From: Minisyncoccia bacterium
Lineage (GTDB): Bacteria > Patescibacteriota > Minisyncoccia > Phycocordibacterales > UBA9973
Direction of reading: 5' to 3'
Assembly (NCBI GenBank): GCA_041737125.1
Contig: JBGSSJ010000003.1
Span: 15,718-79,717 of the forward strand
DNA: 64,000 nucleotides
Shown: one piece after another, positions 2,387 through 38,484 of the stretch
How the letters are laid out: every line of letters begins with the position of its first letter
How positions within the stretch are numbered: the stretch's first letter is position 1
Position numbers and translations under genes: made by a program
Notes under the pieces: model-generated
Database searches by the model: none
Seen by the model: only the letters and a program-made list of their open reading frames with translations
Told to the model about the DNA's origin: nothing

Positions 2387-2666
2387 ATCCCGTTAGAGAT
2401 CAGTTATGTTTTATTACACATATATATTAAGAAGCAAAAAAGACGGTAAGTGCTATACTGGTTATACACATGACCTACGGAAGCGCCTTGTGCAACACAA
2501 CAAAGGTTTATCCACTTATACGAAAGGTAGAGGCCCATTTGTTATTATTTATTACGAAGCATGTTTATCAGAGCAAAAAGCTCGGTCGAGAGAATTATAT
2601 TTAAAATCGGGAATGGGCAAGCGTTATCTAAAGAACAGATTAGGCGCTTCCTATCTCTAACGGGAT
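2387..2666. repeat. 14 bp perfect inverted repeats (atcccgttagagat at 2387-2400, atctctaacgggat at 2653-2666) that exactly bracket the GIY-YIG ORF
   Basis: Read directly. The right repeat contains the GIY-YIG stop codon and overlaps the ATG of the downstream pilB-like gene (2665). Confidence 0.8.
2406..2660 (+). CDS. GIY-YIG nuclease-domain protein (small standalone, UPF0213-like)
   Basis: 84 aa. Begins YYTYILRSKKDGKCYTGYTHDLRKRLVQHNKG, which fits the GIY-(10-11 aa)-YIG motif followed by the conserved Arg. Confidence 0.7.
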   Translation: MFYYTYILRSKKDGKCYTGYTHDLRKRLVQHNKGLSTYTKGRGPFVIIYYEACLSEQKARSRELYLKSGMGKRYLKNRLGASYL

Positions 2667-4365
2667 GACTATCCAATTTGACGAAGATAAAGAAGAGAAG
2701 AATCTATCCGACCTAAGGAAGCAAGAAGAAGAGGACCTGATACAAATGTTATCAGAATCCAAGTACGGTATACCTGCTATTAACCTCAGTTCCATGCCCA
2801 TCGACAACGATGCTCTCCGTTCTATCCCCGAGAAAGAAGCTATCAATGAGAAAATTGCTCCTTTCAAGGTGCTTGGTCATGATCTACATATCGCAGTTCA
2901 ATCTCCCCACAAAGAAAAGTTGGAAAGCCTCACTGAATACTTCAAAAGTCATGGCTTCACTCCCCACTTCTACATGGCATCTATGGCAAGCTTGCAGAAA
3001 GCTTGGGATAGATACAAAGAGATATCGTACGCTTCCGAATCGAAAGCCGGTAGTATCGCTATATCCGGTGATGCACTGAAGAAAATAATGGCAGATATCA
3101 AAAACATTGAAGATATCAAAGCCGCCATAGTAGAAACACAGAAAGACAAGAGCCACACTACTTCACACATACTTGAGATTGCACTTGCAGGTGCTATCGC
3201 TATAAATGCCTCTGACCTTCACTTCGAACCTGAGCAGGATACTGTGCGTCTGCGTTTCCGACTAGACGGAGTACTACATACGGTTATGGAAATAGATCAT
3301 ACGATTCATAAGTTTATAAACTCTAGAATAAAATTACTCTCCGGACTCAAAATTACAACTGCAGCCATAGCTCAAGACGGGCGCTTCAGCATATACCTTG
3401 ATGAAGATGAGATAAGTCTGCGTGTCTCTCTTATTCCTGGAGCTTATGGTGAGTCTATCGTGATGCGTATACTTAATCCAAAATCTATCCAAGTAAAACT
3501 AGAAGATATGGGTATAGAACCGAAGCTTTTTGAAATATTCATGCGCGAAATCAAAAAGCCGAACGGCATGATCCTACTTACAGGTCCAACTGGTTCCGGT
3601 AAGACTACAACTTTATACTCTTTCCTTCAGAAAATATATTCCACTGAAATAAAAATAATCACTATAGAAGACCCTATCGAGTACCACCTACCTGGTATTA
3701 CTCAGACACAGACCGATAGTGAGAAGGGCTATACATTCCTAGAAGGTTTGCGCTCTGCGCTCCGCCAGGACCCAGATGTAATAATGGTGGGAGAAATCCG
3801 CGATAGTGAGACAGCCAAAATAGCCGTCGAGTCTGCACTCACCGGTCACCTTGTGTTCTCTACTCTCCATACGAATAATGCAGCCGGGGTCATCCCCCGT
3901 CTTATAGACCTCGATGTAAATCCAAAGATTCTTGTCTCTGCATTATCTTTATCTATTGCACAGCGTCTTGTTCGTAAGCTATGTACTCACTGCAAGAAAG
4001 AGAGGGTGATAAGTGAAGAAGAAACAAAAATTATAAAAACAGTAAGCGAGAATGCGAAGGCTCATAATAAAGATTTCAATAGTTATGGAGTCGATATGAA
4101 TGCACCTTGGAAGATATATGAAGCTGTCGGCTGTATGGAGTGTAACAACACTGGCTACAAAGGCCGTATGGGAATATTCGAAGCCATTCATAATGATGCC
4201 CAAATAGAAAAAATAATTCCGAACAATCCAAGTGAGCGCGATATTATGGAAGTTGCTCAAAATCAAGGATCACTCAATATGAAAGAAGACGGAATAGTAA
4301 AAATACTAAAAGGTATAACTTCTTATGAAGAAGTAGGTTCTGTCGTAGACTTCTACGCAGATTAG
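2665..4365 (+). CDS. pilB: GspE/PilB-family secretion ATPase (type IV pilus assembly ATPase type)
   Basis: 566 aa. Walker A LTGPTGSGKTTT, Asp and His boxes (LRQDPDVIMVGEIRD, TGHLVFSTLHTN) and a C-terminal tetracysteine (CTHC...CMEC). PilT is excluded by length; in an organism lacking an outer membrane PilB is more likely than T2SS GspE. Confidence 0.85.
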   Translation: MTIQFDEDKEEKNLSDLRKQEEEDLIQMLSESKYGIPAINLSSMPIDNDALRSIPEKEAINEKIAPFKVLGHDLHIAVQSPHKEKLESLTEYFKSHGFTPHFYMASMASLQKAWDRYKEISYASESKAGSIAISGDALKKIMADIKNIEDIKAAIVETQKDKSHTTSHILEIALAGAIAINASDLHFEPEQDTVRLRFRLDGVLHTVMEIDHTIHKFINSRIKLLSGLKITTAAIAQDGRFSIYLDEDEISLRVSLIPGAYGESIVMRILNPKSIQVKLEDMGIEPKLFEIFMREIKKPNGMILLTGPTGSGKTTTLYSFLQKIYSTEIKIITIEDPIEYHLPGITQTQTDSEKGYTFLEGLRSALRQDPDVIMVGEIRDSETAKIAVESALTGHLVFSTLHTNNAAGVIPRLIDLDVNPKILVSALSLSIAQRLVRKLCTHCKKERVISEEETKIIKTVSENAKAHNKDFNSYGVDMNAPWKIYEAVGCMECNNTGYKGRMGIFEAIHNDAQIEKIIPNNPSERDIMEVAQNQGSLNMKEDGIVKILKGITSYEEVGSVVDFYAD

Positions 4366-10617: not shown

Positions 10618-11715
10618 TTACCTATTCATTGGCATTATTAGATACATAAAAGAAGCATCCCCTACTGGTTTTATTATCATAGGCTTATTATTACCATTTA
10701 GTTGTAAATTTAAACTATCAGCTCCTATGGACTGGAAGCAATCTATTATATATTTATAATTAAAATTAGCGGATACATTTTCTCCAGAGAGTGCACCTGA
10801 CATAAAAGTGGTATTTTCTCCTACATCTATATTCTTAGCTTCAATTTCAAAAACTTTTTCTATTGGTTTTACTGTGATCGTTATCTGATTAAATTTATCT
10901 GAAAATATATTAGATACTTTTAGGGAAGATATAAATTCTTGTTTCAAAACAACTGCTTCTGTCAGCGCTGTTTTAGGAATTATTAATTTGTAGTCAGGGA
11001 AATTTCCATCGACAACCCTTGAAGTAAGGTATGTATCGCTGGTTGAAAAAGATATTTGGTTATTTTGTAGTGTTATATTTATATCTTCATCAATACTCTC
11101 AAAAACTTTCATTATCTCTGTTGTATTTTTATAAGGTATGAGTATTCCAGTAAAAGATAATTTTTGTTTTATTTTAATTTTCTTCTCTGCTAACCTAAAT
11201 GAGTCTGTTGATACAAAAACTAACATATCGTCTTCTGGGTATATATAAACACTACCTATTTCTGGTTTTATCTCAGAAATTGATGCACTATAATAAACAG
11301 ATTTCAAACCTTCTATTAGTTTTTTACTAGGTAAAATAAAACTATCCCCTTTAATTATAGGTATAGTAGGAAAATCCTCATAAGGTGTGCTTTTAAGTAA
11401 TATTGTGTTTGATTTAGTTTTAACAGATAAATTATTATTTATTAATTCAAAGGACACATTTCCATCCCCTGATAGTACAGAGAAGAGAGATGATAATATA
11501 TCTCCCCTAATAGCAACAATACCTTCTTTCTCTATTTTTGCAGGAATTTTAATTTCAATACCAATACTAAGATTTGTTGCTCTTAATTTTAATGTTTTCT
11601 CTGTTGCGATCCATAGTATAGAACTAAGTACAGGTAATGTAAGATTCTTACCAGTTAATCGATCAACCGATATTAACGCATTCTTTATTTTATTTATAGA
11701 GCATTCTATTTTCAT
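10618..11715 (-). CDS. dnaN: DNA polymerase III beta sliding clamp
   Basis: 365 aa, three-domain length. N-terminus MKIECSINKIKNALISVDRLTGKNLTLPVLSSILW is typical. Located directly downstream of dnaA. Confidence 0.88.
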   Translation of the reverse strand: MKIECSINKIKNALISVDRLTGKNLTLPVLSSILWIATEKTLKLRATNLSIGIEIKIPAKIEKEGIVAIRGDILSSLFSVLSGDGNVSFELINNNLSVKTKSNTILLKSTPYEDFPTIPIIKGDSFILPSKKLIEGLKSVYYSASISEIKPEIGSVYIYPEDDMLVFVSTDSFRLAEKKIKIKQKLSFTGILIPYKNTTEIMKVFESIDEDINITLQNNQISFSTSDTYLTSRVVDGNFPDYKLIIPKTALTEAVVLKQEFISSLKVSNIFSDKFNQITITVKPIEKVFEIEAKNIDVGENTTFMSGALSGENVSANFNYKYIIDCFQSIGADSLNLQLNGNNKPMIIKPVGDASFMYLIMPMNR

Positions 11716-11921: not shown

Positions 11922-13286
11922 TTACTTAAACATAATTCTAATCTTTTCTATTTCTTGTAATAAAGAAGGGTCGGTTTTTAAATCATCTCTTATTTTTAAA
12001 TGGGAATGGATTACTGTTGTGTGATCCCGACCACCTAGCTTCTGCCCTATTAATGGATAAGAGATATTAAAGTCTTCTCTTAGCACATACATAGCTACTT
12101 GACGAGCTCTTACTATTTCCTTTCTTCTAGTCTTCTCGTATATTATTTCTTCTGAAATTCCATAATGGTCTGCGATTATACGAACTATATCTTTGATTGC
12201 TACGGTTTTTTTCGGTTTAATATTGTTTTTAATTAATGCCTTTACTTCAACAAGACCCAATGATTTATTTTTAAGTTGAGATTGGCATATAATAGTGTTC
12301 AGACTACCCTCTAATTCACGTATATTACCCTCTAGGGCTTGCGCTAGGTAATCAACGACATCTTCTGTCGCAATACAGTTTGTAGACTCAAATTTAGCCT
12401 TTATGATAGCAACACGCGATTCATAATCCGGCTCAACTATCTGTACTGTCATACCAGATGCGAACCTTGATTGTAGTCTATCTTCTAATCCTTGGATAAA
12501 GTTAGGGTGTTTGTCTGAAGAAAAGATAATTTGTTTATTACTTTCGTAAAGTGTATTAAACAAATGGAATAATTCTTCCTGTGTTTTGTCCTTACCAGAA
12601 ATAAATTGTATATCATCCATGATAATTACATCGTATTTTCTGTACTTTTCTTTGAAAGCATTTGGGTTTTTATTTTGTATTGAGTTTATATAATCTATAG
12701 CGAAACGCTCAAGACTGACATAGTAGACTCTTTTATTTGGATACTTTATTTTTATTGTATTCCCTATTGCTTGTATCATATGTGTCTTACCTAAACCAGT
12801 ACCACCATATATAAAGAAAGGATTATAGTTTTGACCAGGGTTTGTGATAATAGCTTGAGCAACAGCGTAAGCAAGTTCGTTAAAAGGACCCACTATAAAT
12901 GAATTGAATGTGTACTTAGGGTTTAGATTATCATCTTTGTTTAGATATAAATCATTTAAAGGAAGTTCTTTGTTTATGCTTATCTTAGTAGTAGGAGCTT
13001 CTGTTTTATCGTTTGATTTAGCTTGTTGATCATATTTATGTATTATGTACTCTATATTTCTTACACCTTCTTCGTGGCTTATTAGTGTTTTTAGTATAAG
13101 TTTATGAAATTTATTATATAACCAGTCTTTTACAAATTCATTAGGTACCCCTATGTACAAGGTACCAGTGTCCTCTTTTACAATAGATGTGTTCTTAAAC
13201 CACGTAGTAAAATTAGCCTTAGATATACTTAACTCAATTTCAGACAAACAATTATTCCAAAGCTCTTTTGTGTTCATAGTGCGCAT
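11922..13286 (-). CDS. dnaA: Chromosomal replication initiator DnaA
   Basis: 454 aa. Walker A GGTGLGKTHMIQAIGN, Walker B VIIMDDIQFISGK, and the C-terminal DNA-binding signature GGRDHTTVIHSHLKI. Confidence 0.95.
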   Translation of the reverse strand: MRTMNTKELWNNCLSEIELSISKANFTTWFKNTSIVKEDTGTLYIGVPNEFVKDWLYNKFHKLILKTLISHEEGVRNIEYIIHKYDQQAKSNDKTEAPTTKISINKELPLNDLYLNKDDNLNPKYTFNSFIVGPFNELAYAVAQAIITNPGQNYNPFFIYGGTGLGKTHMIQAIGNTIKIKYPNKRVYYVSLERFAIDYINSIQNKNPNAFKEKYRKYDVIIMDDIQFISGKDKTQEELFHLFNTLYESNKQIIFSSDKHPNFIQGLEDRLQSRFASGMTVQIVEPDYESRVAIIKAKFESTNCIATEDVVDYLAQALEGNIRELEGSLNTIICQSQLKNKSLGLVEVKALIKNNIKPKKTVAIKDIVRIIADHYGISEEIIYEKTRRKEIVRARQVAMYVLREDFNISYPLIGQKLGGRDHTTVIHSHLKIRDDLKTDPSLLQEIEKIRIMFK

Positions 13287-17796: not shown

Positions 17797-19641
17797 CTAC
17801 TTACCATTGAATGACCAATGCCAAGGTTCTTTATCTAGATTTTGGAATCCATATTTAGATGCATTCGACTTAAGCCAAATGAAGCATTTACTATTTTTAC
17901 CACCTGAGGCCATCATTTTTTGACCATTACATGTAAAGTCTACAGCCCCTCCACCTTCATGATTTGAGTGGCCAGGTCTTGCTGTTGGAGGTTTGCAACT
18001 ACTTGATGGAGAGTTGTAGATATCCGGAGTACACCTATTCCTTTTTCTTAGAATAACTTGAGTTTGGTAGCTTCTAGATCCACTACCAGACAATATTATT
18101 CCATTCTTTTTGGCATCATCAAGCATTCTTTGAAGGTTAGAAGCTATAGGGATGCCACCAATAGAATTACAAACATTTATTTTATTCGGAGTACCGTATG
18201 TAGTTACATCTTTGTAACCAGTTGTACATAGATTTGCACCTTTCCCTGTAGGGGCCCCACCTCCTTGACTGTATATTGCATCAGGTTGTTCTAGTTCCAC
18301 TTCTTCATCTATCACACCCTGCACCCCCTCCACACTCAACCCATCCTTCCCTGTAAGCGCTGGATCTATGGTATTTAGTAATGCAAATGCACCAAGTGCT
18401 ATAAAGAGTCCTAGTAATGCAGCTTTTATCTTACTCTTCGCTTCTGTCTTACCGAATATTGACTCATCCCCTATATACTGTATACCAGCTATAATTATCA
18501 TTATCACAGCTAGTGCTCCAGCGAGTCCTATGCCTAGCTGGAACATTATATTAAAGTAATCCCCTATATTATCAGTCCTTATCTCTTTCAGTTTCCCTAT
18601 TGGTGCCAGTAATTCATATGTCATCTTGTTTACAAAAGATTGTTGATTCTCTGCATCTATACTGACGGCTTCGTCACCTTCCGGTATTATTTTGACTAAT
18701 TTACCATTATCAAGACAAAGACCAAAACAGTCATACCATAACCACCCAGTATTATTACTATTATTAGCAGAGCTATATGTAGTATTGTTGCCCTGATTTA
18801 TCTTAAAATACAAATCACAATTAAATCCAATAGAAGGTTTTTCACAATCTTCTTCACCTAGTAGTATTCTTATCTTGAAATTATCACTAGGAACTTTTAT
18901 GGGTTCATCATATATACCAGATTTATCCCAACCATCATCAGTTAATCTTGTTAAACCATCGGATTCATGAATAGTCAGTTTTATCCCAGTCCTACCCACA
19001 CAATCTTTTGACTTCACTACAATATCTGCATGAGTTAATCCTTCTACAAACCAAGCTCCTTTATGTTCTCCTGATGGATCCCAGTATGCGGACTCTATTT
19101 TACATGGAGATGATGTGTTCGTTGTATTTGTAGTTACTGTGCTACCTGTTACTGTTAGGTCGGTAATTTTTATTTCCTGAAATTTAAAGCTTTTGTCTAT
19201 CTTCTCTGATTTAGTGAGTCCATCTTTTGTTGTCGTTATTCTATTTACAATATTTACTGTCAGTATATAGTTCCCTTTTGTTACTTTGAATTGTCCACTC
19301 GCTAAAGTATTATCATTCTTATAATTAGTATTCATAGCCGCAGAATTGGATATAAGCAAAGGTTTCGTCGTAGTCCCCTTGGTGTTATTATAGCCATATG
19401 TAGTAGAAGGGTTAGCTTTCAAATTAAGAGTTATGCCATATGTTACATCTTTATTATCTCCATTTACGGCTGTATTTGCAGCTCCGAAGTTTATAAAGGG
19501 TCCGTTGATTGTATAATTTACTTTTAGGTCCGGAACTGATGGTAATCCTGCAGTAGTAATTGTCTCAGCATTAGTTATGCTTGGGATAATATAGATTAAA
19601 GAAAGTAGGAATATAAGTATGTATCTAGAGAATTTTTTCAT
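17797..19641 (-). CDS. T4SS-associated cell-wall hydrolase: a large secreted N-terminal domain, then a two-TM pilin-like hairpin, then a C-terminal peptidase M15 (VanY-like) domain
   Basis: 614 aa. Signal peptide. TM pair FQLGIGLAGALAVIMIIIAGIQYI / ALLGLFIALGAFALLNTI. M15 zinc-site motifs SRSYQTQ, HSNHEGGGAVDF and EPWHW. Gene sits adjacent to the VirB4 gene. Confidence 0.6.
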   Translation of the reverse strand: MKKFSRYILIFLLSLIYIIPSITNAETITTAGLPSVPDLKVNYTINGPFINFGAANTAVNGDNKDVTYGITLNLKANPSTTYGYNNTKGTTTKPLLISNSAAMNTNYKNDNTLASGQFKVTKGNYILTVNIVNRITTTKDGLTKSEKIDKSFKFQEIKITDLTVTGSTVTTNTTNTSSPCKIESAYWDPSGEHKGAWFVEGLTHADIVVKSKDCVGRTGIKLTIHESDGLTRLTDDGWDKSGIYDEPIKVPSDNFKIRILLGEEDCEKPSIGFNCDLYFKINQGNNTTYSSANNSNNTGWLWYDCFGLCLDNGKLVKIIPEGDEAVSIDAENQQSFVNKMTYELLAPIGKLKEIRTDNIGDYFNIMFQLGIGLAGALAVIMIIIAGIQYIGDESIFGKTEAKSKIKAALLGLFIALGAFALLNTIDPALTGKDGLSVEGVQGVIDEEVELEQPDAIYSQGGGAPTGKGANLCTTGYKDVTTYGTPNKINVCNSIGGIPIASNLQRMLDDAKKNGIILSGSGSRSYQTQVILRKRNRCTPDIYNSPSSSCKPPTARPGHSNHEGGGAVDFTCNGQKMMASGGKNSKCFIWLKSNASKYGFQNLDKEPWHWSFNGK

Positions 19642-19671: not shown

Positions 19672-21513
19672 TTACTGATTCGCCTCTTGTGCAGCTAATT
19701 CATCCTTCGCTTTCTTGATAGAAAGTATCTGTGATGGGTCTGAAGTTATAATCTGGTCTTCGGTGTAGGAAGCGATTGTTTTCACAGCGACGTGCTTGAG
19801 CCCTGCGAAGAATATACCCTCTCCGACATTCGCTTCGAGGAGCAGATACTTCTCTTCGTCTGTCAGGTTGAATGTCTTCTGTAGTACATCTATGGTTGAT
19901 GGGGATTGCTTCAATAGTATCTGGATAGAAGAGTTCGTGATTATCGGCACACCATATGGACTCTTCATGAAGTCGCCCACGTCTTGGGTAATAGTAGCAA
20001 GTCCTAGGTAGTATTTACGCCCACGCTTTGCGATAGAGTATAGGAATGAAGCAGTATCTTCAGACTTCATCATCCACCAAGCCTCATCGACTACAAGTAG
20101 TCGCTTCTTTATATTCTTGCGCACAGCATTCCATATCTGATGGATAACTATGTACATAGCGACTGGTTTGAGTTCATCTTCCATGTCGCGGACAGAGAAC
20201 ACCACGAATTTACGATTAATATCCACGTTCGTCGGCTGGTTTAGGAATGAAGACCATGAACCGTGGGTATACTTCGCTAGTCTTTGTATAAGGGATTCAC
20301 TACCATCCATACCCGCTAGGACCATTTCGAAGTCCATCAGTAGTGGTGGCTCTATGTTTGCAAAGTTGGATTCTGCTGTTATGTCCTTCAGTGCATAAGT
20401 CTCTGTGATGGCTCGGTCGATAATAGAATCTTCCTCTGGAGTAAGTCCTCCGAGCATGATGCGGAAGAGCCCCACTAGGTGTATGGTATTAGCGCGTAGT
20501 ACATCGGCTGGAGTCTCGTCGGATGTGGGTATAGGCAAGTCGAAAGGATTGATATGGTGATCAGAAGAAAGAGCGATATTGAAGTATCTACCCCCTACTG
20601 CTTCAGAGAGGTATTCGTACTCACGCTCTGGGTCGATGACGATGACTTCTGTGTCGAACATAAGTGTGCGAACAATCTCAAGCTTCGTTGCATAAGATTT
20701 ACCAGCACCAGAAGTAGCGAATGTAATAGAGTTATAGTTCGGCAAGGAGAACCTATCAAAGATTATCAGACTAGAGTTGTGGCGGTTCACTCCATAGAGT
20801 ATTCCTTTGTCAGAAGTAAGGTCGAAAGATACAAATGGGAACAGGCTAGATAGTGGCTCCGTATCAAGCTTCTGATTTATGTTTATGATGTCTGTCCCTG
20901 TAGGGATGACACTCTTGAAAGCTTCATCTTGCTGGAAGAGCGCTGGCTTCAGATAGATGAGTTTCGATTCAAGTAGTGACTTGATCTCACTCTCTACTTT
21001 GAATAAATCATTCTCATTATCGGCATAGATAGTAATATATAGACCCACATCGAACATTTTCGCTTGGGCCTGCATCAGGTTGTCGCGTAGGCCTTCGAGG
21101 TCGCGGTAGGCGGTGTCGAGCATCGGGTCGCGCACCAGGCCTTTCGACTCACGGATCGATATCTGACTTTGGACTTCAGCTACTTTCTTCTGGAAAGATT
21201 TCAATACTTCGCTTGTATCGATAGGGTGTATAAAAATAGAGACATCGAAAACTTTGTCCAAGTTGATAATCGGAGAGAACCAGTTGTCGGTAAGATAGCG
21301 GGGATAAGATATAACGAAGAAGGTACGGGCTATCTTGTCGCCTAGGTTTAGAACTTTCGGTGTAATCTGTAATGCTGATGGTGCGATAATATCCTGTAGT
21401 TCGAGAGTAGCCGCATGATATATTTCGGAAGGTATAACAGGCATCACCGTGCTCTTCGGCTTCGGATTGTTGTTGCTATTCCCTCCTCCAAATATTGATG
21501 AAAAAATTCCCAT
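19672..21513 (-). CDS. virB4: VirB4/TrbE/CagE-family T4SS ATPase, C-terminal ATPase portion
   Basis: 613 aa. Walker A FATSGAGKSYATKLEI. Walker B LLVVDEAWWMMK (the DEAW motif typical of VirB4). Arg-finger-like region KRGRKYYLGLATITQ. Confidence 0.85.
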   Translation of the reverse strand: MGIFSSIFGGGNSNNNPKPKSTVMPVIPSEIYHAATLELQDIIAPSALQITPKVLNLGDKIARTFFVISYPRYLTDNWFSPIINLDKVFDVSIFIHPIDTSEVLKSFQKKVAEVQSQISIRESKGLVRDPMLDTAYRDLEGLRDNLMQAQAKMFDVGLYITIYADNENDLFKVESEIKSLLESKLIYLKPALFQQDEAFKSVIPTGTDIININQKLDTEPLSSLFPFVSFDLTSDKGILYGVNRHNSSLIIFDRFSLPNYNSITFATSGAGKSYATKLEIVRTLMFDTEVIVIDPEREYEYLSEAVGGRYFNIALSSDHHINPFDLPIPTSDETPADVLRANTIHLVGLFRIMLGGLTPEEDSIIDRAITETYALKDITAESNFANIEPPLLMDFEMVLAGMDGSESLIQRLAKYTHGSWSSFLNQPTNVDINRKFVVFSVRDMEDELKPVAMYIVIHQIWNAVRKNIKKRLLVVDEAWWMMKSEDTASFLYSIAKRGRKYYLGLATITQDVGDFMKSPYGVPIITNSSIQILLKQSPSTIDVLQKTFNLTDEEKYLLLEANVGEGIFFAGLKHVAVKTIASYTEDQIITSDPSQILSIKKAKDELAAQEANQ

Positions 21514-21514
21514 A

Positions 21515-22168
21515 TTATTGTAATTTAATTCCTTGGCTTATATCACCAGGATTGAATGTTTTATAAAAAAGTTCTACAACTTCATCTGTTTTCAGTTGGG
21601 AGCTGCGCACACCAAGCCCTCCAAGGCCAGAGATGATCACGCCCACTCTCTCGTCGAGCTGGCTACGCTTCTCCTCGAAGTCGGCCATATCCATAGCCTT
21701 CTTCGTATTCTCTATCTGCTTCTTTGGTGCAGAGGATCCGAGCAACTTCTCTATAGCATCTCCGCTTGATTTTATAACATTAGAACTATAAGGCACAACA
21801 ATGAAGAAAGTCTTTGTCATGATGTTCACTTCATCGGTGAACGACTTGATGAATTCTATATACTCTTTTGTTTGTATCTTCAGAAGCTTCTCTGTCTGCT
21901 CGCGTTCACGGGCCTCTAGAGTAAGTAAGTAAGGGCGGATATCTAGTCTACGAGACTGTACAACTATCTGTATAGAGAAGTCGAGTCCATTTAAGAAAGA
22001 TTGGAATTGATTGATGATGGCCATCTGCTCATCGGAAGATTTAAGTGATAGGTTGATGGATGATGCTATGAGGACAGCACGAAGACCGCCATCTTTAAGT
22101 ATGATGACTCCATTGCGGACTTCTTTTATTGGAACGAATTCTTGAGCAGCGCGTGCATTTATAGCCAT
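21515..22168 (-). CDS. VirB4 N-terminal domain encoded as a separate ORF
   Basis: 217 aa. FVPIKEVRNGVIILKDGGLRAVLIASSINLSLKSSDEQ resembles the N-terminus of Gram-positive VirB4 homologs. Its stop is 1 nt before the ATG of the ATPase ORF (TAAtATG). 217+613 = 830 aa, a typical full VirB4 length. Confidence 0.6.
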   Translation of the reverse strand: MAINARAAQEFVPIKEVRNGVIILKDGGLRAVLIASSINLSLKSSDEQMAIINQFQSFLNGLDFSIQIVVQSRRLDIRPYLLTLEAREREQTEKLLKIQTKEYIEFIKSFTDEVNIMTKTFFIVVPYSSNVIKSSGDAIEKLLGSSAPKKQIENTKKAMDMADFEEKRSQLDERVGVIISGLGGLGVRSSQLKTDEVVELFYKTFNPGDISQGIKLQ

Positions 22169-22250: not shown

Positions 22251-22667
22251 TTAATTACCTACATTATCGTCTTTCACATCTAGACTCCAGGATAAATCCT
22301 TCAAAGAATTTGCAGACGACATAGGAACGATAGAAGTCATACTGTTCGGTAGCTGATCAGGAGCGACTTCGCCTTGTTTGGGCTTTACTAGACGCTGCTT
22401 CCAGACATATAGCTTGCTCGACATTACATAGTTGAGGGCTGCTTGTAAGTAGTATATAAAAGGTTTTTCATTTATGCGGTAGAAAACAAGGAGTAGGGTG
22501 AGGCCTCCTATAAGTAATATAGGTAGAACAGCTACCCAGAATGGTAGCATACGGTATAGAACGAATATCATTCCTCCCCCACCGAGCATATATGCGAATT
22601 GCTTGAAGGTAAAAGGTCCAAATAACTTGTCCTCAACATCTATAAATTGTGGAACTTTGAATTGCAT
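22251..22667 (-). CDS. VirB3/PrgI-like small membrane protein of Gram-positive-type T4SS
   Basis: 138 aa. Two TM helices (MLGGGGMIFVLYRMLPFWVAVLPILLIGGLTLLLVFY) after a short cytoplasmic N-terminus. Lies immediately upstream of the VirB4 ORFs. Confidence 0.5.
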   Translation of the reverse strand: MQFKVPQFIDVEDKLFGPFTFKQFAYMLGGGGMIFVLYRMLPFWVAVLPILLIGGLTLLLVFYRINEKPFIYYLQAALNYVMSSKLYVWKQRLVKPKQGEVAPDQLPNSMTSIVPMSSANSLKDLSWSLDVKDDNVGN

Positions 22668-23786: not shown

Positions 23787-26174
23787 TTAATGGTGTCCTC
23801 CCCCCCCTCCACCATGTCCTGCGTCCGCCTTCGCATGACCACCCCCTCCACCCGAACTCACTTCGATTTTCATACCTTTTAGGGTAGTTTCAAGTGTGTT
23901 TCCCAAATCCTTTAAGAAATCTTTTTGTGCAGTCCCTGTGTTTACCTTTAGTCCACTCTTGAGCCCCATACGCACCCCACCCGCAACTACAGCAGCTAAA
24001 CCTACACCTACATTCGGTATAAATCCTTTTGATTTTACTTTTGTGTCTGGAAGATTTCTTAGATCATAACTTCCTTTTCTGAGAGCGTTAACAAATTCAC
24101 TAACAGCTGTCGCTTTTTTTGTATCTCCGACCATATCTGTAGATGTATGAACATGCTCACCTCTAGTTGCTGCTATTTGTTTATTAGCTTCTGCGGCATC
24201 AGCCCACTCACCATTTGGATTAATTGGATTTCTATTGGTATCAATAACACCTCTTTGTGCTTGATCAAGTTTTTCGTAGGGCTTATTATATTGTTCTTTT
24301 GATACGATATCTCTATCAATTCTATCTCGAACAGTTTTTTGCTGATCTTCTCCGAGATCTTTATACTTCATTTCTTTATTACCTGTAACAGCTTGGGCCT
24401 TTTCATCTAGTACATGTTCTGAGTGCTCCTTAGCCCCCAACTTCTTGCTCTCTCTTTGGATCCAACTCGTTTCTTGCCCTGTGTGGGGATCTGCTTTTCT
24501 TCCTATTCTAGATATTCCATGTGCAACACCCGCCGCCGCCGCCTTACCTGTACCTTGTACAGCTTCTTTTGCTAATTTGGTGTAAGCAAGTGGATTTATA
24601 ACATTCCAACCCTTTATTTTCTTAGCAGCTTCTTTGGTGTCTTTATAGTTAAGAGCATTTTCTCTGGCTCCATCGTTTTGTGCGTATTTAGATACTGAAC
24701 CCATGGTCTGTCTTCCTAGTGCCGCCGCACCAAGAGCTGCACCACCGAGAGCAAGTCCACCCATAGCCATACCGACATTCGTGACTGTAGAGCCGATGGT
24801 ACCAGCTAATTTGGAAGCGATAGATTTTGCTTGCCATAGAAGCACCATGATGAAAATGAAAGGCACTATGGTGGCGAGGATAAACGCCGCACCGTTCTCA
24901 GAGTTCACAGGCACTAGGCTTTCTAGGCTTACGAACTTGATTATCATATACATGAAGAACATGAATACTGGGGCGAGGAATGCCATCTTGATGGTTTCTG
25001 ACCACCATTTCTTGTAGCCGACCATTTCCATGTCTGCCATGGCGGGTACTGTATAAGAGAAGAATGCAAAAGGTACGAGTATCATAGCGAGCCACAGTCC
25101 GATAACCCGAGCGACAAATAGTAGTCCGACAGTAAGGAACACTATGAACCCGATAACATTGATAGCTATAGCAAGAACAGTTACAAGTATGTATACACCA
25201 GCTCCGTCATTTGTTTCTGTTAATTGCTGTGTGGTCATTACAGTCGTCTCTGAGTTTGATTTATTTATCTTACCCACTTTGCCCAATCCCTCACTTATAA
25301 GCTTTTGAGGATTTACTTTTGATACTATAACCTCAGACATAGGTATAGGCTTACCAGAATCTGTGTCAACGGCTTTACCATCTTTAGTCACACTAATAGT
25401 CTGTGAGTTATAGAAGACTCGCGCCAAGATGTTCGAAGTGTCGATGATGATTTGTGTAGCAAATAAGCTGAAGTTTATCAACAGTCCTATGATGACTACC
25501 TTTACTATCATATCCTTCGGGCCTGAGCCATGCCCACCACCGACGCCGAGTATAGTAGTAAATGCCACATACAAGAGTACGAATATGAAGAACATATTCA
25601 CTATGTCGCGCACTAATCCCCAACCCTCGAGTACAAAAGTAGAGCGATAAGAGTCATCATTAATAGAGTATGCGAACATATTATCGAAAAATATTCCAGC
25701 AAGACCGAACAAAGCAGATGTTAAGCTAAATAACATGTCGAATAATTGAGCAACACACCCCAAGAATGTTCCAGTGGCTCCTACCTTAAACATAGTAGCA
25801 AAAACACAATTCGGTACCACATCTACTTTTGGTTCTGATGCATTCACAGAAAGACCAGCCGCAGCACGAGCCTCTTGTAATACATTAAGTAAATTTTCTA
25901 CTTGTATTCTAAGTGCAATTATTTCTTCGGCGGTATAAGAACTACCATCTGCCTTTGTTCCTCCCGCGAGGGCTTTATTATAGATATCGATTGCAGCATC
26001 ATGCGCTTTCTTCGCATCATCTATCGCTTTCTGTTTCTCTTCAGGGGTTAGGTCTGCATTTACTATATTTGCGCGGACTTCTAATCCCCTCTCGATATTC
26101 CTTGCTACGCTAAAAGGCGCGAACAAGTTCACGAGTATGACTAATAAGAGGATTGTAGGGAGGAACTTTTTCAT
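23787..26174 (-). CDS. Large polytopic membrane protein, VirB6/TrbL-like channel candidate, with a long cytoplasmic tail ending in a Gly/His-rich tract
   Basis: 795 aa. Signal peptide. At least 7 hydrophobic helices between aa ~150 and 480. Charged ~300 aa C-terminal region ending SSGGGGGHAKADAGHGGGGGGHH. No catalytic motifs. Genomic context with VirB4/VirB3-like genes. Confidence 0.5.
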   Translation of the reverse strand: MKKFLPTILLLVILVNLFAPFSVARNIERGLEVRANIVNADLTPEEKQKAIDDAKKAHDAAIDIYNKALAGGTKADGSSYTAEEIIALRIQVENLLNVLQEARAAAGLSVNASEPKVDVVPNCVFATMFKVGATGTFLGCVAQLFDMLFSLTSALFGLAGIFFDNMFAYSINDDSYRSTFVLEGWGLVRDIVNMFFIFVLLYVAFTTILGVGGGHGSGPKDMIVKVVIIGLLINFSLFATQIIIDTSNILARVFYNSQTISVTKDGKAVDTDSGKPIPMSEVIVSKVNPQKLISEGLGKVGKINKSNSETTVMTTQQLTETNDGAGVYILVTVLAIAINVIGFIVFLTVGLLFVARVIGLWLAMILVPFAFFSYTVPAMADMEMVGYKKWWSETIKMAFLAPVFMFFMYMIIKFVSLESLVPVNSENGAAFILATIVPFIFIMVLLWQAKSIASKLAGTIGSTVTNVGMAMGGLALGGAALGAAALGRQTMGSVSKYAQNDGARENALNYKDTKEAAKKIKGWNVINPLAYTKLAKEAVQGTGKAAAAGVAHGISRIGRKADPHTGQETSWIQRESKKLGAKEHSEHVLDEKAQAVTGNKEMKYKDLGEDQQKTVRDRIDRDIVSKEQYNKPYEKLDQAQRGVIDTNRNPINPNGEWADAAEANKQIAATRGEHVHTSTDMVGDTKKATAVSEFVNALRKGSYDLRNLPDTKVKSKGFIPNVGVGLAAVVAGGVRMGLKSGLKVNTGTAQKDFLKDLGNTLETTLKGMKIEVSSGGGGGHAKADAGHGGGGGGHH

Positions 26175-33773: not shown

Positions 33774-36700
33774 CTAACGACGATACCAACCATAACCCCC
33801 TACTGGAACAGTCCACCTATTATTTGCAGCAATTACATCTACACCCCTAAGCGCTCTCCTAACTGTTTCTGGACTGTAGTCATACATAGGATTCTGGTAA
33901 TTACTTTGTCTTACGCTGTAACTTTGTCTTTGCATTCCGCGAGATGTGCGATCACCTTCTCTAAATTCATTACGATCAAGAGCTGTCTCACTTATATCTG
34001 CATCTTTCTTGAGAGCGTAGAGTGTGTTGTCTTCTGTTCTGTGTATATCGCGTGTGATACGAGTTATATACTTCTCTAGTGGTTCATCCCCTATTGGCTT
34101 TGCATTTAGAGGGTCAATCTTCTCGTATAATTTCGACATTCTTACTAGCTCTTCTTCATTCTTGAATGAAAGGTCAGTTATGGCACCGGCAGAGTTTTGT
34201 GTACCTACTACTATGCCTTTATTGATAAGTGTCTGCATTTCTTCTGTAGAAACTTGGGCATTATTCATATCGAAGAAATCTTTCGCAGGAATCTTGTTCA
34301 CAATCTTCCATTCTGGCTGTTCACGATAGTAGTCTAATGCTGTAGCTTCTACTACCTTATCTAGTTCTTTGTCGTACATATTACCTGTTTGTCCATTACC
34401 TAGAAGAGTCTGCATTGTCCTCTCTTTCTCGTATTCGTCATATGAAGCGAAATCTAGCTTCTTCTGTTCGAAAGTATTATCAACTGCATTGTTCCATTTA
34501 TTATTCTCTACTCCATTTGTTTCGACATATGTCGGCTTATCTATAACTACATTGGAGCGACCGAATGTGTCGCGGACTTCTTTCGCATCTTCTAGGTGTC
34601 TTGCATCTGCCTCTATCTTATTCATAGAGACTTCTTTGTTGCCACCTACGTTCTCTATATTATTTTGCCCTGCATTTGCTGCAGCCTCATTTTCTCTAAG
34701 TGTTTCGAGCATTCTCTCGCGTGCTTCTATCTCTGCTTGGGCTACATTGGTCATAGGTATTGGACCTTTTGTGAAGCCATTACCTTGTATTTGAGACTGG
34801 CCACTGTCGCCTGCTCTATATATAGTCTCACCTCCACCAGTGGTATTGAATCCACCACTATTCGGAGATACCATTTCAGTGTTTGTGCCATTACTATTGT
34901 CCCACTTACCTTCAAGGGGAGCTATGTCTTCATTCCTACCTTGAGTTAAGTTTGACTTAAGACCATCATTTTCTCCTGGAGTTATAGCTTGCTCATCTAC
35001 TTGTATATTTTGATTTATCTTTTCCGGAGCATCTCCTCCATTTAGTGGTTGCTCATCTACTTGTATATTTTGATTTATTCTCTCTGGTGCATCTCCTTCT
35101 AGTCCTGTCTGAGAATTACTTGCTTCAAATTCAGAAACTTTCTCTGGTGATACCATTCTACTACCAGATCGATCAGAGTCGAACATCTTACCATCATACT
35201 TACCTGAAGGTGCCTCCGCGTCTCCTTTTGCGAGCTCTATAGGAGTACCACCTTCACTCTGACTGTATGATACATTGCCACTCTCATCTACATTAAATCT
35301 TCCACCGAGCTGTAGCATTGCACTCTCTGCGTCTTTACTAGGATCGAACATGCCGTACTCTATAGCAAGCTTGTCTGCTTTCGTATCTAGGATATGTTGC
35401 ACACTCGCAGGTCTGGTCGCTTCATCAGGATATTCTGCCTCCAACTTTTCTTGAAGTTCTTGTATTGTCTGTATTGCTCCATGACCTTTCGCAACTTCGA
35501 CACTTACTGCTTCTGGTTTCTCTTCATTTTGTTCTTGCTCAGTTTCCTCTTCTTTTTCTTCAACCTTCTCTTCCTCTTCCTCATTTGCCTCTTCTTGTTC
35601 CTCTTCATTATTTTCACTTTCTTCCTTTTCTTCAGCTTCATTGTCTTCCTTCGACTCTTCTTCCTCTACAGTTCCGTTATCATTATTTCCAGCCTCTTCT
35701 ACCTCAGGAGCTGGGCCAACTTCATCAGGACCTAGGCTTCTACCTGGATAATTATTAAAACCAAACAACCTTTTAAAGAATCCAGGTTTACTCTCTGCTT
35801 GATCTGCGACTTCTCCTGCTACTGGAGCAGCTACTTCTGGCTTCTCTATATTGTCTCCACCTAGGTTTATACCTAATTGTCCGGAAGCCAGTAACTCAGT
35901 TCCACCACCAAGTACAGCACTCATAGTTAGACCCACTGCCATTTTGGCGCGAGCTCTATTCCTTAATCTTTTCTTCTCGGCTTCATCGAGCTTCAGCATC
36001 TCCTCATCGTATTTCTTCAGATCGATACTATTGGCAGCGAACTGGTTGCCCAGGACTTCCATTTGAGCTTTCTGGTATTCTGCAAATGCCTCATCTTTCT
36101 TTTTATTTTTAAGATCTATGCCTTGGACAGCAAGAGCAGTTCCTTGACCTATTGTGTAGCTTCTTGCTAAACCTTTTGTAAATTTATAACCTGCATATGC
36201 TCCAGCACCTGCTGCTCCGACAATCCCAAAACTTACGGCACCTATCGTAAAAATACCAGTATTTAGAGCAATTCTTGCGGGCTTCGGTAGTTTTACATAC
36301 CAGTTTAGAGCCTGCTTCCAGTAAGGCTTTACAGGTGAACCCTCTGTCTTTTGTTTAGCTAATTTCCTCTTTTCTTCTACATAGACTTTCCCGAGGACTT
36401 CTGTTGCTTTGTATTTTAGGAAAGCTTCTTGTACTTGTTGGTAAGAAAGACTAGGATCTCTGTCCAACTCTCGCATCTTTTCATGGCAAAGTTTACGTTC
36501 TAGTGCTTGCCTTGCTTGGTCGTAAGATTCCTTAGTATTTTTGTATTCTTGTGAAAAGTAGTCCTCTTCTGCGATTTTCTTTGATATCCCAAGGCTAGCT
36601 TTAACCTTATCAATATTTAATTTCAGTTTATGTTCCTTTTTATTCTTTTTGTATTGCTCTACATATTCTCCGCGAGCGATATGTAATGCGATCTCTTCGC

Positions 36701-36938
36701 CATCCATGCCAAGCTCACGTCTAAGCTCGTCTAGCACATATGGAGATGCGTTCTCTGCGACAGCTTCTTGATACAACTTTATTTTATCTTTCAAAAGCTT
36801 GTCCTTCTCGTCCTCTATAGTCGCCGCATTCTTAATAGCCAGCTTTTTGTCAGCTTCTATTTCCTTCGCAAGCTTTTTCGCATCGGCTGGGGTTGGAGGA
36901 ACTATCGGAGCTATTGGGGGTACATCAACGTTTGTCAT
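33774..36938 (-). CDS. Very large hypothetical membrane protein with a poly-acidic (Glu-rich) region and an internal 20 aa tandem repeat
   Basis: 1054 aa. Hydrophobic helices (IALNTGIFTIGAVSFGIVGAAGAGAYAGY; MAVGLTMSAVLGGGTELLASG). Tract EEEESKEDNEAEEKEESENNEEEQEEANEEEEEKVEEKEEETEQEQNEE. Repeat APERINQNIQVDEQPLNGGD x2. Confidence 0.6.
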   Translation of the reverse strand: MTNVDVPPIAPIVPPTPADAKKLAKEIEADKKLAIKNAATIEDEKDKLLKDKIKLYQEAVAENASPYVLDELRRELGMDGEEIALHIARGEYVEQYKKNKKEHKLKLNIDKVKASLGISKKIAEEDYFSQEYKNTKESYDQARQALERKLCHEKMRELDRDPSLSYQQVQEAFLKYKATEVLGKVYVEEKRKLAKQKTEGSPVKPYWKQALNWYVKLPKPARIALNTGIFTIGAVSFGIVGAAGAGAYAGYKFTKGLARSYTIGQGTALAVQGIDLKNKKKDEAFAEYQKAQMEVLGNQFAANSIDLKKYDEEMLKLDEAEKKRLRNRARAKMAVGLTMSAVLGGGTELLASGQLGINLGGDNIEKPEVAAPVAGEVADQAESKPGFFKRLFGFNNYPGRSLGPDEVGPAPEVEEAGNNDNGTVEEEESKEDNEAEEKEESENNEEEQEEANEEEEEKVEEKEEETEQEQNEEKPEAVSVEVAKGHGAIQTIQELQEKLEAEYPDEATRPASVQHILDTKADKLAIEYGMFDPSKDAESAMLQLGGRFNVDESGNVSYSQSEGGTPIELAKGDAEAPSGKYDGKMFDSDRSGSRMVSPEKVSEFEASNSQTGLEGDAPERINQNIQVDEQPLNGGDAPEKINQNIQVDEQAITPGENDGLKSNLTQGRNEDIAPLEGKWDNSNGTNTEMVSPNSGGFNTTGGGETIYRAGDSGQSQIQGNGFTKGPIPMTNVAQAEIEARERMLETLRENEAAANAGQNNIENVGGNKEVSMNKIEADARHLEDAKEVRDTFGRSNVVIDKPTYVETNGVENNKWNNAVDNTFEQKKLDFASYDEYEKERTMQTLLGNGQTGNMYDKELDKVVEATALDYYREQPEWKIVNKIPAKDFFDMNNAQVSTEEMQTLINKGIVVGTQNSAGAITDLSFKNEEELVRMSKLYEKIDPLNAKPIGDEPLEKYITRITRDIHRTEDNTLYALKKDADISETALDRNEFREGDRTSRGMQRQSYSVRQSNYQNPMYDYSPETVRRALRGVDVIAANNRWTVPVGGYGWYRR
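34989..35108. repeat. 60 bp tandem repeat x2 (ttgctcatctacttgtatattttgatttat...), encoding the 20 aa INQNIQVDEQ repeat of the 1054 aa protein
   Basis: Read directly; the two units are about 90% identical. Confidence 0.8.
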
Positions 36939-36939
36939 A

Positions 36940-38484
36940 TTATTGTTTGTTAACTAAATTATTGAATTCTTCTTCGACCTGTTTTATATACTCATTTGTC
37001 CTTTCTATATAAATTTTCTTGGCTGCTTGATAGCCTTGTACCTCGTACATTATTCTACCATTCTGGTCTGCTATTTTATATATCTCATTGTTGTCGTTAT
37101 TATCATCAACTTCAAAATGGTATCCACCGTAGTCACCCACATTCTTTGGGTTAGGTTCTGATATTCGAAGACTAAAGCCAGCTGTGTTGAAATCTACACA
37201 AAAATCTTCGTCACCATATATACTTGTCCTAGACTTGTTCTTATAAATAGCTTGTATGTATTCAACAGTTTCATCGAAAGATTTGTAAAAATAATAACCC
37301 GCATCTATTCCAGTTAAGCTGATATATTCCTCTCCTTCTTCTTTATGGTCACTACGATCACGTAGGTACCCATCAATAATTGGATCAGTTACCTTACGTG
37401 CTAGAAAGTAAGGTAATGGGAATGTTTTCTTCATGTTTAATTCTAGAGATTCTTTTAGGTCCTCAAGCTTAATGAATTTTTTTTGTCTTTCTAGAAGGAG
37501 TTTGTCTTCTTCTTCTTTTAATACTTTCTTCTGAGCATCGTTCGCTACCTTAATCTGTTCCCGCACAGCTTCTATTTGTTTGTATATCTCACTTCTTTGT
37601 GAAGTTATTTCATTAAAATCCCTTACACCCTTCTCGAAATTCTCCTTCGCTTCCTGTTTTCCTTTTGGGCTTACATTTATCCATCTATCCATATTCTCTT
37701 CTTCACGCTTTGTTCTTTCGATTGTTCTCTTGATTTCTTTTCTTCTGTCTCCATTTTTGAAATACTTCCATACCTTTGGGAATGTTTTTCCGAAAGAAAG
37801 TTCACCCAATTGTTCTTTTAGAATCTCAGTCTTATTGCTCGGACCTACATTTTTCTTCTGTGCATCTGGAGTAACACCAGGCGCGGTATTCACAGCTGCT
37901 GGTGCTGGGTTAACAGTCGCAGGTTCCACAGTCTTTTTAGTGTTCTCTCCTTTCTTCTGTTCTAGCCCACGCAAGATGAGCTCATTTGCTCTGATCTTCT
38001 CACGTAATGCATAATTACCTTTCTCTTCTTGTTCTAACCACTTTTCTTTATTCAATAAAGATTGCATCTTATCTCTGAATGCACCATCTACCTTCCCCTG
38101 CTGTTCAGGGGTTCTAGATTTAGGTTCTTTTGTTTCTTTCTTCTCATTGTCATTATCTAGATCAAGAGGCCCAAGCTCATCAGGCTCAGGAGCTGCCACC
38201 TTTGCTGGTTCAAGTTCGTTGTCTTTGTCATCCAAATTATGAGGTCTTAATTTATCATCTTCAGCTTCTTCTTCCACCCCAAATGCTTTCCTGGTTTGAG
38301 CCAGCTGGTCTGCGGTCAGAGTTTGGCCTGCTATGAATTCATTAAATTTTCTTAAAGCTTCTGCCCTTTGGTTTGATTTTTCTTCAGCTATTTTAGCCTC
38401 TATTGCATCGGCTTTTGCCTGCAGAGCTTGCTTCTCTTTTTCTATTTCCTCTTTAGTTTGTGTTGGGGGGTAATCTTTTGTCAT
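36940..38484 (-). CDS. K/E-rich coiled-coil hypothetical protein, paralog 1 of a tandem pair
   Basis: 514 aa. No TM. C-terminal domain shares collinear motifs with the next ORF: PLPYFLARKV/PFAYYLVDKI, EYISLTG/QYVSLKG, GFSLRI/GFSMKI, YIKQVEEEFNNLVNKQ/YINKVEKEFNKLTNK. Confidence 0.6.
   Translation of the reverse strand: MTKDYPPTQTKEEIEKEKQALQAKADAIEAKIAEEKSNQRAEALRKFNEFIAGQTLTADQLAQTRKAFGVEEEAEDDKLRPHNLDDKDNELEPAKVAAPEPDELGPLDLDNDNEKKETKEPKSRTPEQQGKVDGAFRDKMQSLLNKEKWLEQEEKGNYALREKIRANELILRGLEQKKGENTKKTVEPATVNPAPAAVNTAPGVTPDAQKKNVGPSNKTEILKEQLGELSFGKTFPKVWKYFKNGDRRKEIKRTIERTKREEENMDRWINVSPKGKQEAKENFEKGVRDFNEITSQRSEIYKQIEAVREQIKVANDAQKKVLKEEEDKLLLERQKKFIKLEDLKESLELNMKKTFPLPYFLARKVTDPIIDGYLRDRSDHKEEGEEYISLTGIDAGYYFYKSFDETVEYIQAIYKNKSRTSIYGDEDFCVDFNTAGFSLRISEPNPKNVGDYGGYHFEVDDNNDNNEIYKIADQNGRIMYEVQGYQAAKKIYIERTNEYIKQVEEEFNNLVNKQ

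Follow-up and report, generated by a model that had tools for sequence, protein, structure and literature searches.

A VirB4 ATPase spread over two open reading frames raises the question of whether a cell makes this motor as two proteins or whether a single gene has been broken, either in the organism or in the assembly. We met such a case in a 64,000-nt stretch from a Minisyncoccia bacterium (contig JBGSSJ010000003.1, positions 15,718 to 79,717), which we refer to as the window. A first-pass annotation of the window had left four alternatives undecided for the locus: a genuine two-gene VirB4, translational coupling, a recent frameshift with pseudogenisation, and a sequencing error.

Two ORFs separated by a single base

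Both ORFs are on the minus strand and in different frames. The upstream one, ORF A (22168..21515), encodes 217 aa and ends in a TAA stop at 21517–21515, and the downstream one, ORF B (21513..19672), encodes 613 aa from an ATG at 21513–21511, so that the combined length is 830 aa. The junction TAA-T-ATG (21511..21517, minus strand) can be read directly from the sequence, with position 21514 as the single spacer base, and the letters around it are CAA TAA T ATG GGA; on inspection, the junction contains neither a run of Ns nor a homopolymer. The Walker A motif GAGKSYATK is at ORF B residues 269–277 (20683..20709, minus strand), and the Walker B region LLVVDEAWW, which contains VVDEAW, is at residues 472–480 (20074..20100, minus strand). 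The two ORF lengths and their total, the coordinates, the frames, the TAATATG junction and the placing of both Walker motifs in the larger ORF were all as first annotated.

A one-base spacing between ORFs is also found at 36940/36938 in the window, and the TAAnATG geometry is therefore not special for this genome. Tight gene packing is general in the window, and when the regions upstream of its genes were checked, a Shine-Dalgarno motif was absent from most of them.

ORF B is the VirB4 ATPase body

ORF B (19672..21513, minus strand) encodes a VirB4-type ATPase of type IV secretion systems (T4SS) that belongs to the CD1110 family and is without about the first 180 profile positions. It scores 376.5 bits against the CD1110-family profile NF045971, where the cut-off is 325, and the match covers positions 183–732 of 752. 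The Pfam domains P-loop_TraG (E=3.3e-26), AAA_10 and DUF87 are found in it, and in the PDB its sequence matches the C-terminal domain of Thermoanaerobacter VirB4 (4ag5, E=2.1e-37) as well as TrwK of R388. The complete N-terminal domain, profile positions 1 to ~180, is absent from ORF B, and it is ORF A that matches this part of the profile instead.

ORF A is TrsD-like, with the predicted fold of the VirB4 N-terminal module

We assigned ORF A (21515..22168, minus strand) as a TrsD-like protein, a detached VirB4 N-terminal module, from profiles, homologues and an AlphaFold2 fold. Among the NCBIfam models, it matches positions 104–238 of 894 in NF045975, the Mbov_0397 VirB4 model (E=2.6e-10), positions 2–132 of 752 in NF045971 (E=9e-5), and the standalone TrsD/TraD family NF041427 (E=2.2e-7). 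The last of these matches reaches 30.9 bits, far under the cut-off of 200, and ORF A is a distant relative of the TrsD/TraD family and not a member by the NCBI threshold. Its layout is that of TrsD/TraD, a standalone VirB4-N-terminus homologue of ~200 aa immediately upstream of virB4. Because both ORFs are matched by NCBIfam profiles, their domain assignments are not due to chance.

A local Pfam search gave no match for ORF A, although in the protein database every one of its homologues is assigned PF26593. Searched against the PDB by sequence, ORF A gave just a chance match to a proteasome subunit (E=0.78). The AlphaFold2 model, for which 89 diverse homologues were the input, has a pLDDT of 88.9, and TrwK/VirB4 chains of R388 take all of the first 14 places in its PDB fold search (probability 0.99–1.00, TMq 0.33–0.54), with noise below them. 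The relationship of ORF A to VirB4 is thus visible only by profile and by fold, and both bear out the earlier claim that the 217-aa ORF carries the VirB4 N-terminal region. From profiles and model together we conclude that ORF A is a TrsD-like protein predicted to have the fold of the VirB4 N-terminal module.

Homologues of ORF A are numerous, with more than 7,658 in the database. The best 120 of these are all 215–218 aa long and 79–100% identical to ORF A, and where they are given a source name it is Patescibacteria, Paceibacterota or Nomurabacteria. When 50%-identity representatives were searched exhaustively, 2,276 clusters matched, and standalone proteins make up nearly all of the best 150. 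Some homologues have long low-complexity C-terminal tails.

Together the two ORFs account for one VirB4

On NF045971 the two ORFs cover complementary segments, 2–132 by ORF A and 183–732 by ORF B, and when joined they align colinearly with the fused relatives P0207 (797 aa) and P0241 (898 aa). The region that corresponds to the gene boundary is short in one of these relatives and contains ~100 low-complexity residues in the other. Aligned with the fused homologues, ORF A and ORF B lack no conserved residues at the break, which answers the earlier suggestion that residues might be missing there.

When the two sequences were concatenated and modelled, pLDDT fell below 50 at residues 211–253, which are the end of ORF A and the first ~36 residues of ORF B. 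The concatenated model matches full-length TrwK (8rtd_O) end to end (E=5.9e-27, 831 columns, TMq 0.55, TMt 0.57), as a model that treats both ORFs as one chain and so cannot prove that the separate chains associate. From the colinearity, the low pLDDT at 211–253 and the TrwK superposition, we conclude that the gene boundary falls in a flexible linker within the N-terminal half of VirB4. This linker is variable among relatives and is predicted to be disordered. ORF A and ORF B each supply the part of VirB4 that the other lacks.

Fused forms are not confined to the two relatives used in the alignment. A search with P0207 gave more than 115 clusters of 775–807 aa, mostly from Ca. Colwellbacteria where a source is named, and in these proteins a PF26593 N-terminal domain, as in the ORF A homologues, is joined to the ATPase domains. 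In the fused lineages each part occurs once, and the order of the parts is unchanged. Split and fused VirB4 are thus both real within Patescibacteria. One member of the fused lineage, P0289, appeared to be a recent fission, and we rejected it as such because the apparent split was a run of Ns where the scaffold has a gap; that artefact is unlike the clean, conserved junction of ORF A and ORF B.

The split is conserved and both genes are under purifying selection

We compared the locus in 80 related species-representative genomes, whose ORF A homologues are 62–88% identical to ORF A. In all 80, the ORF A homologue ends in a stop and a restart follows for the ORF B homologue. ORF B starts at a conserved ATG of its own, after which come MGIFSS-like codons. 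In ~64 of the 80 loci the spacer is between −4 nt (an ATGA overlap) and +15 nt. Each of the three possible relative reading frames is represented, by roughly 33, 14 and 16 loci. The other ~16 relatives have long spacers of 38–288 nt, which are AT-rich and 38–114 nt long in 6 loci and contain an inserted element and are 119–288 nt long in 10. This variety of spacers and frames excludes a fixed frameshift site.

Between the window and its relatives, pS is 0.77–0.90 and thus saturated, while pN is 0.08–0.27 for ORF A and 0.04–0.14 for ORF B. Saturated synonymous sites, low pN and the conservation of the arrangement together indicate that the split is ancient and that both genes are under purifying selection.

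A hairpin-bounded GIY-YIG element inserts at start codons

The spacer insertions in the 10 relatives belong to a family of hairpin-bounded elements with the ends CCCGTTAGAG...CTCTAACGGG, and in some relatives the element sits exactly at the ORF A/ORF B junction. From their start, GGTCCCGTT, the 119–288-nt spacers were suspected to contain a tRNA, but ARAGORN detected none and the spacers proved to be the hairpin/GIY-YIG element. A version of ~276 nt encodes an 84-aa single-domain GIY-YIG protein (Pfam E=4e-16), and mini versions with no ORF are also found. The window itself has a full copy at ~2386–2664, abutting the ATG of a PilB-like ATPase gene.

In a metagenome scan whose search pattern did not include ATG, an ATG directly follows the right end of the element in 72 of 128 cases. 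The five nucleotides ATGNN are duplicated on both sides of the element in 54 of 57 testable cases, compared with a mean of 25 and a maximum of 36 after shuffling, and the ORF that follows the element has a median length of 196 codons versus 16 for random ATGs. We conclude that this mobile element inserts at start codons. No Rfam family matches it. Among described systems the Ssn family is the closest (PMC11893778); its GIY-YIG single-strand nucleases have hairpin repeats on their flanks. Start-codon targeting by such elements was found neither in that paper nor by a full-text literature search.

The neighbouring genes fit a chromosomal T4SS locus

Immediately upstream of ORF A is a gene for a small VirB3-like membrane protein of the PrgI family (22251..22667, minus strand; Pfam PF12666, E=1.9e-6, 28.7 bits with a cut-off of 27), and the same order is seen in a Pontibacillus plasmid locus (L081) and in locus L084. 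Further upstream, a 795-aa protein (23787..26174, minus strand) has no Pfam or NCBIfam match; it is syntenic with a 779-aa gene of the Pontibacillus T4SS locus, and from its position it may be a VirB6-like channel subunit. Directly downstream of ORF B, a 614-aa protein (17797..19641, minus strand) has a pilin-like segment and a VanY-type peptidoglycan peptidase domain. Its VanY match is at E=3.8e-14, and its matches to Pfam T4SS_pilin (E=1.5e-4) and to the NCBIfam Mbov_0395 pilin-like model (E=5e-4) are each under the cut-off. A peptidoglycan endopeptidase also follows VirB4 in L081 and in a second Bacillota plasmid, L082. The large ORFs that flank the pair carry no T4SS family names in NCBIfam or Pfam.

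The replication genes dnaA (11922–13286) and dnaN (10618–11715) lie in a range of ~3.5–8.5 kb from the cluster. Patescibacteria T4SS loci are often near dnaA (PMC12102498), and the window agrees with the published description of such loci in that TrsD and PrgI/VirB3 genes adjoin VirB4 and the locus is chromosomal and near dnaA.

A broken gene, a misassembly, a fused product or an unrelated partner

Were the locus the remnant of a once-fused VirB4 that had recently suffered a frameshift, the apparatus would be non-functional. A full-length fused VirB4 does exist in a related lineage, and a single base separates the two ORFs, whose frames differ. Against this, the split is present with varied spacers and frames in every one of the 80 related species-level genomes, synonymous sites are saturated and both ORFs are under strong purifying selection, ORF A keeps a constant length in its best 120 homologues, ORF B has its own conserved start, and no conserved residues are lost at the junction. 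Of the marks of a frameshift pseudogene (a split absent in relatives, relaxed selection, lost residues) none was found, and we regard recent pseudogenisation as refuted, with a probability close to nil. The chance that a single-base indel in the assembly artificially split one ORF is similarly vanishing. Such indels do occur in metagenome assemblies, and P0289 shows that an assembly can make a fused gene appear split, but the same stop and restart recur in independent assemblies from many projects and sequencing platforms, an exact copy of ORF A (P0001) is recorded with two different source labels, ncbi and lgn, in the protein collection, and the junction has no N-run or homopolymer. The conservation that speaks against pseudogenisation thus disposes of sequencing error as well, and of the four alternatives first listed it is the genuine two-gene VirB4, with the same split in all of the orthologous loci, that is supported.

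Two further explanations accept that both ORFs are intact. A programmed ribosomal frameshift or stop read-through could yield a fused VirB4 from the pair, since the ORFs are adjacent and in ~16 relatives they share a frame with a stop and one to a few codons between them. This is very improbable, as the frame relation is not conserved (all three occur, along with ATGA overlaps), the sequences around the junction in the 80 loci show no evident conserved slippery motif, and spacers of up to 288 nt are tolerated even when they include a mobile element. ORF A might also be an independent accessory protein, an adaptor or regulator that arose from a duplicate of the VirB4 N terminus, and not the missing piece of ORF B. 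The long C-terminal tails of some ORF A homologues would suit such a role, as would the report that trsD in Gracilibacteria often does not adjoin virB4 (PMC12102498). We consider it unlikely, because ORF B lacks exactly the profile segment that ORF A supplies, the fused lineages hold each part once and in the same order, and the modelled pair superposes end to end on full-length TrwK.

A VirB4 encoded by two cistrons

We conclude, with a probability of about 0.92, that this is a normal chromosomal T4SS locus of Patescibacteria, of the Paceibacteria/Nomurabacteria type, in which VirB4 is encoded by two cistrons that are both functional. In the arrangement that we propose, the TrsD-like 217-aa protein would be the first, membrane-proximal sub-domain of the VirB4 N-terminal domain, and the 613-aa protein would comprise what remains of that domain, together with the Walker-type ATPase domain. 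The genes would form a single operon in the order PrgI/VirB3-like, TrsD-like, VirB4, and pilin/peptidase gene. The products of ORF A and ORF B would be made together and may rebuild a complete VirB4 protomer by non-covalent association, and this protomer would then dock on VirB3/VirB6-like membrane components and power the machine.

Coupling of termination and reinitiation probably helps to keep the two products near equimolar. Such coupling is probable because Shine-Dalgarno motifs are mostly absent in the window and the stop and start are one base apart, and it is not obligatory because 16 of 80 relatives have spacers of 38–288 nt. Translational coupling as first suggested is therefore plausible for this locus but evidently dispensable in those relatives.

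A more speculative idea, to which we assign a low probability, is that the break in the linker is not neutral, and that with a separate membrane-proximal sub-domain the cell could adjust the stoichiometry of this sub-domain, or the order in which it is assembled, separately from the ATPase; a cap might, for instance, be placed on those VirB4 protomers alone that contact VirB3/VirB6. If this were true, the split form (Nomurabacteria/Paceibacteria) and the fused form (Colwellbacteria) would together offer a natural experiment on how VirB4 assembles in a T4SS that is essential and non-conjugative.

For annotation, we recommend that the locus be recorded as a functional T4SS that is intact, not decaying, and that the small ORF carry the name TrsD-like (VirB4 N-terminal module) in place of "hypothetical" or "VirB4 fragment". 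In a cultivated Patescibacterium, the T4SS is the one machine that has been shown to be indispensable for epibiotic life, and a two-chain motor matters for structural and genetic work on it.

Comparison with known systems

The pairing of TrsD with VirB4 is already known from Patescibacteria and from pGO1-type Gram-positive plasmids (PMC12102498). The first-pass annotation described the split correctly but missed both this published pairing and the placing of the small ORF in the named TrsD/TraD family.

In single-chain VirB4 proteins, such as CD1110 of Clostridioides ICEs and TrwK of R388 (PDB 7o41/8rtd), the full domain order and fold are those that ORF A and ORF B together are predicted to reproduce, the difference being that in the window the polypeptide is cut in the linker after about the first 200 residues. 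VirB3–VirB4 fusions in some conjugative systems (PMC12102498) likewise show plastic gene boundaries around the VirB4 N terminus, but they are fusions rather than a fission, and the PrgI/VirB3 of the window is a separate gene.

The pGO1/pSK41-type TrsD/TraD and TrsE/TraE proteins (MPF_FATA subclass, NF041427) also consist of a small VirB4-N-terminus homologue encoded immediately upstream of a VirB4 ATPase of ~620–670 aa. These are plasmid-borne Gram-positive conjugation machines with a relaxase, whereas the window locus is chromosomal, and ORF A reaches only 30.9 of the 200 bits required by NF041427. Similar pairs are found on other plasmids. In the Pontibacillus plasmid locus L081, the gene for a 274-aa protein shares 11 nt with that for a 621-aa "VirB4-like ATPase, CD1110 family", and the gene order is that of the window; in Halobacillus, an annotated TrsD is 12 nt ahead of a 622-aa DUF87 ATPase. 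On L081 and L082, both of them Bacillota plasmids, a VirB4 of 621–622 aa thus comes after a TrsD or a hypothetical protein, and a haloarchaeal plasmid matches the same layout more weakly.

The nearest relative is the TrsD and VirB4 pair described for Patescibacteria by Quiñonero-Coronel et al. 2025 (Microb Genom, PMC12102498), in which TrsD is the most abundant T4SS component and 1,664 TrsD genes adjoin virB4. That paper lists the TrsD copy of Ca. Southlakia epibionticum ML1 as essential, after Wang et al. 2023, and attributes the remote homology of TrsD with the VirB4 N terminus to Guglielmini et al. 2014, in the main text of which (PMC4027160) the word TrsD does not occur. The window shares with this pair the phylum, the two genes, their adjacency, the PrgI/VirB3 gene next door and the position near dnaA, and there is no essential difference between them. 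To that description our analysis adds the explicit finding that ORF A and ORF B complement each other on a single profile and a single fold, junction statistics over 80 genomes, and a fused sister lineage in Ca. Colwellbacteria.

A hairpin element at start codons

At 2386–2664 on the forward strand lies an element of ~276 nt that has inverted repeats at both ends (ATCCCGTTAGAGAT ... ATCTCTAACGGGAT) and contains an 84-aa single-domain GIY-YIG ORF (2406–2660, forward strand; Pfam PF01541, E=4e-16). The host gene 3′ of the element is a T2SSE/PilB-like ORF of 566 aa (2665..4365, forward strand) whose ATG at 2665 directly abuts the element, and the TAA stop of the GIY-YIG ORF sits within the right repeat, 4 nt ahead of this host ATG. 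Both flanks of the element carry "ATGA," as if the start codon had been duplicated as a target site. The window element had zero matches in Rfam.

Of the 80 relatives with split genes, 10 carry a member of the same element family exactly at the trsD–virB4 junction, after the stop codon of trsD and before the ATG of virB4. Seven of these loci have trsD–virB4 spacers of ~119–126 nt (L010, L015, L027, L038, L041, L042, and L067), and the spacers of the other three (L024, L032, and L039) are ~283–288 nt long and contain a 276-nt element. The junction insertions take two forms, hairpin minis that lack an ORF and the GIY-YIG version, and either ATGGG or ATGAG is duplicated on the two sides of them. 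The copy at L015 has a strong predicted hairpin fold (z=−4.8), and at a further locus, L077, a copy of the family precedes the starts of prgI and trsD. Because such elements are inserted in these 10 relatives, we conclude that long insertions are tolerated at the trsD–virB4 junction.

A scan of metagenomes with the pattern CCTATCTCTAACGGG, which yielded loci L085–L204, showed that the family is widespread. Directly after the right end of the element there is an ATG in 72/128 cases and a GTG in 7/128, and ATGNN is present on both sides of the element in 54 of the 57 testable cases (shuffled sequences gave a mean of 25 and a maximum of 36). The ORF downstream of the element has a median length of 196 codons, compared with 16 for random ATGs, and the recognised GIY-YIG ORFs at the scan loci are always co-oriented with the host gene. 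Judging from these sequence patterns, the element family appears to target start codons. The scan also contained a second element class, with GTTTAC/GTAAAC flanks. Full-text literature searches and PMC11893778 provided no description of start-codon targeting; the closest described system, reported in the latter, is the Ssn GIY-YIG nucleases, which have flanking hairpin repeats.

Split and fused forms of VirB4

A junction of a stop codon, one base, and an ATG recurs in the window at 36938–36940 on the reverse strand, between ORFs 38484..36940 and 36938..33774, and almost all genes in the window lack a Shine-Dalgarno-like motif in the 20 nt before the start. From these two observations, we conclude that tight junctions are a genome-wide style and not a peculiarity of virB4.

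A large sister lineage, which is Ca. Colwellbacteria wherever the source supplies a name, has a fused VirB4 of 775–807 aa with the same N-terminal domain (proteins P0207 and P0271–P0389; locus L084; none in the window). The junction residues are RQGMGG in the fused P0207 versus LQ*MGI in the window, which hints that the fusion may be secondary. P0289 was rejected as a split member of the fused lineage, as a scaffold N-gap makes the apparent split.

Three TrsD homologues of 391–443 aa (P0158, P0168, and P0189) extend at the C-terminus well beyond the conserved ~210-aa core, with long tails in which Pro, Ala, Gln, and Thr are abundant, and these tails could be either genuine extensions or mis-called stops. 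By length only, ~30 further homologues among the top 150 representatives measure 280–440 aa. In tblastn, the 217-aa TrsD-like protein of the window (ORF A) weakly matched (E=3e-5) a 367-aa hypothetical protein on the haloarchaeal plasmid NZ_CP089470.1 of Halobacterium noricense (L083). Since the gene that directly follows codes for an 838-aa "transfer complex protein," a TrsD-like module may also precede VirB4-like ATPases in archaea.

Neighbourhood of the T4SS cluster

Directly downstream of virB4 is the gene for a 614-aa protein (17797–19641, reverse strand) that has a weak T4SS pilin-like/Mbov_0395-like match at residues ~356–424 and, at the C-terminus of the same chain, a VanY-type D-Ala-D-Ala carboxypeptidase domain. 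Unlike other monoderm systems, which have a VirB1-type cell-wall hydrolase, the cluster has this pilin-like/VanY-type gene in its place. [quoted passage not shown]
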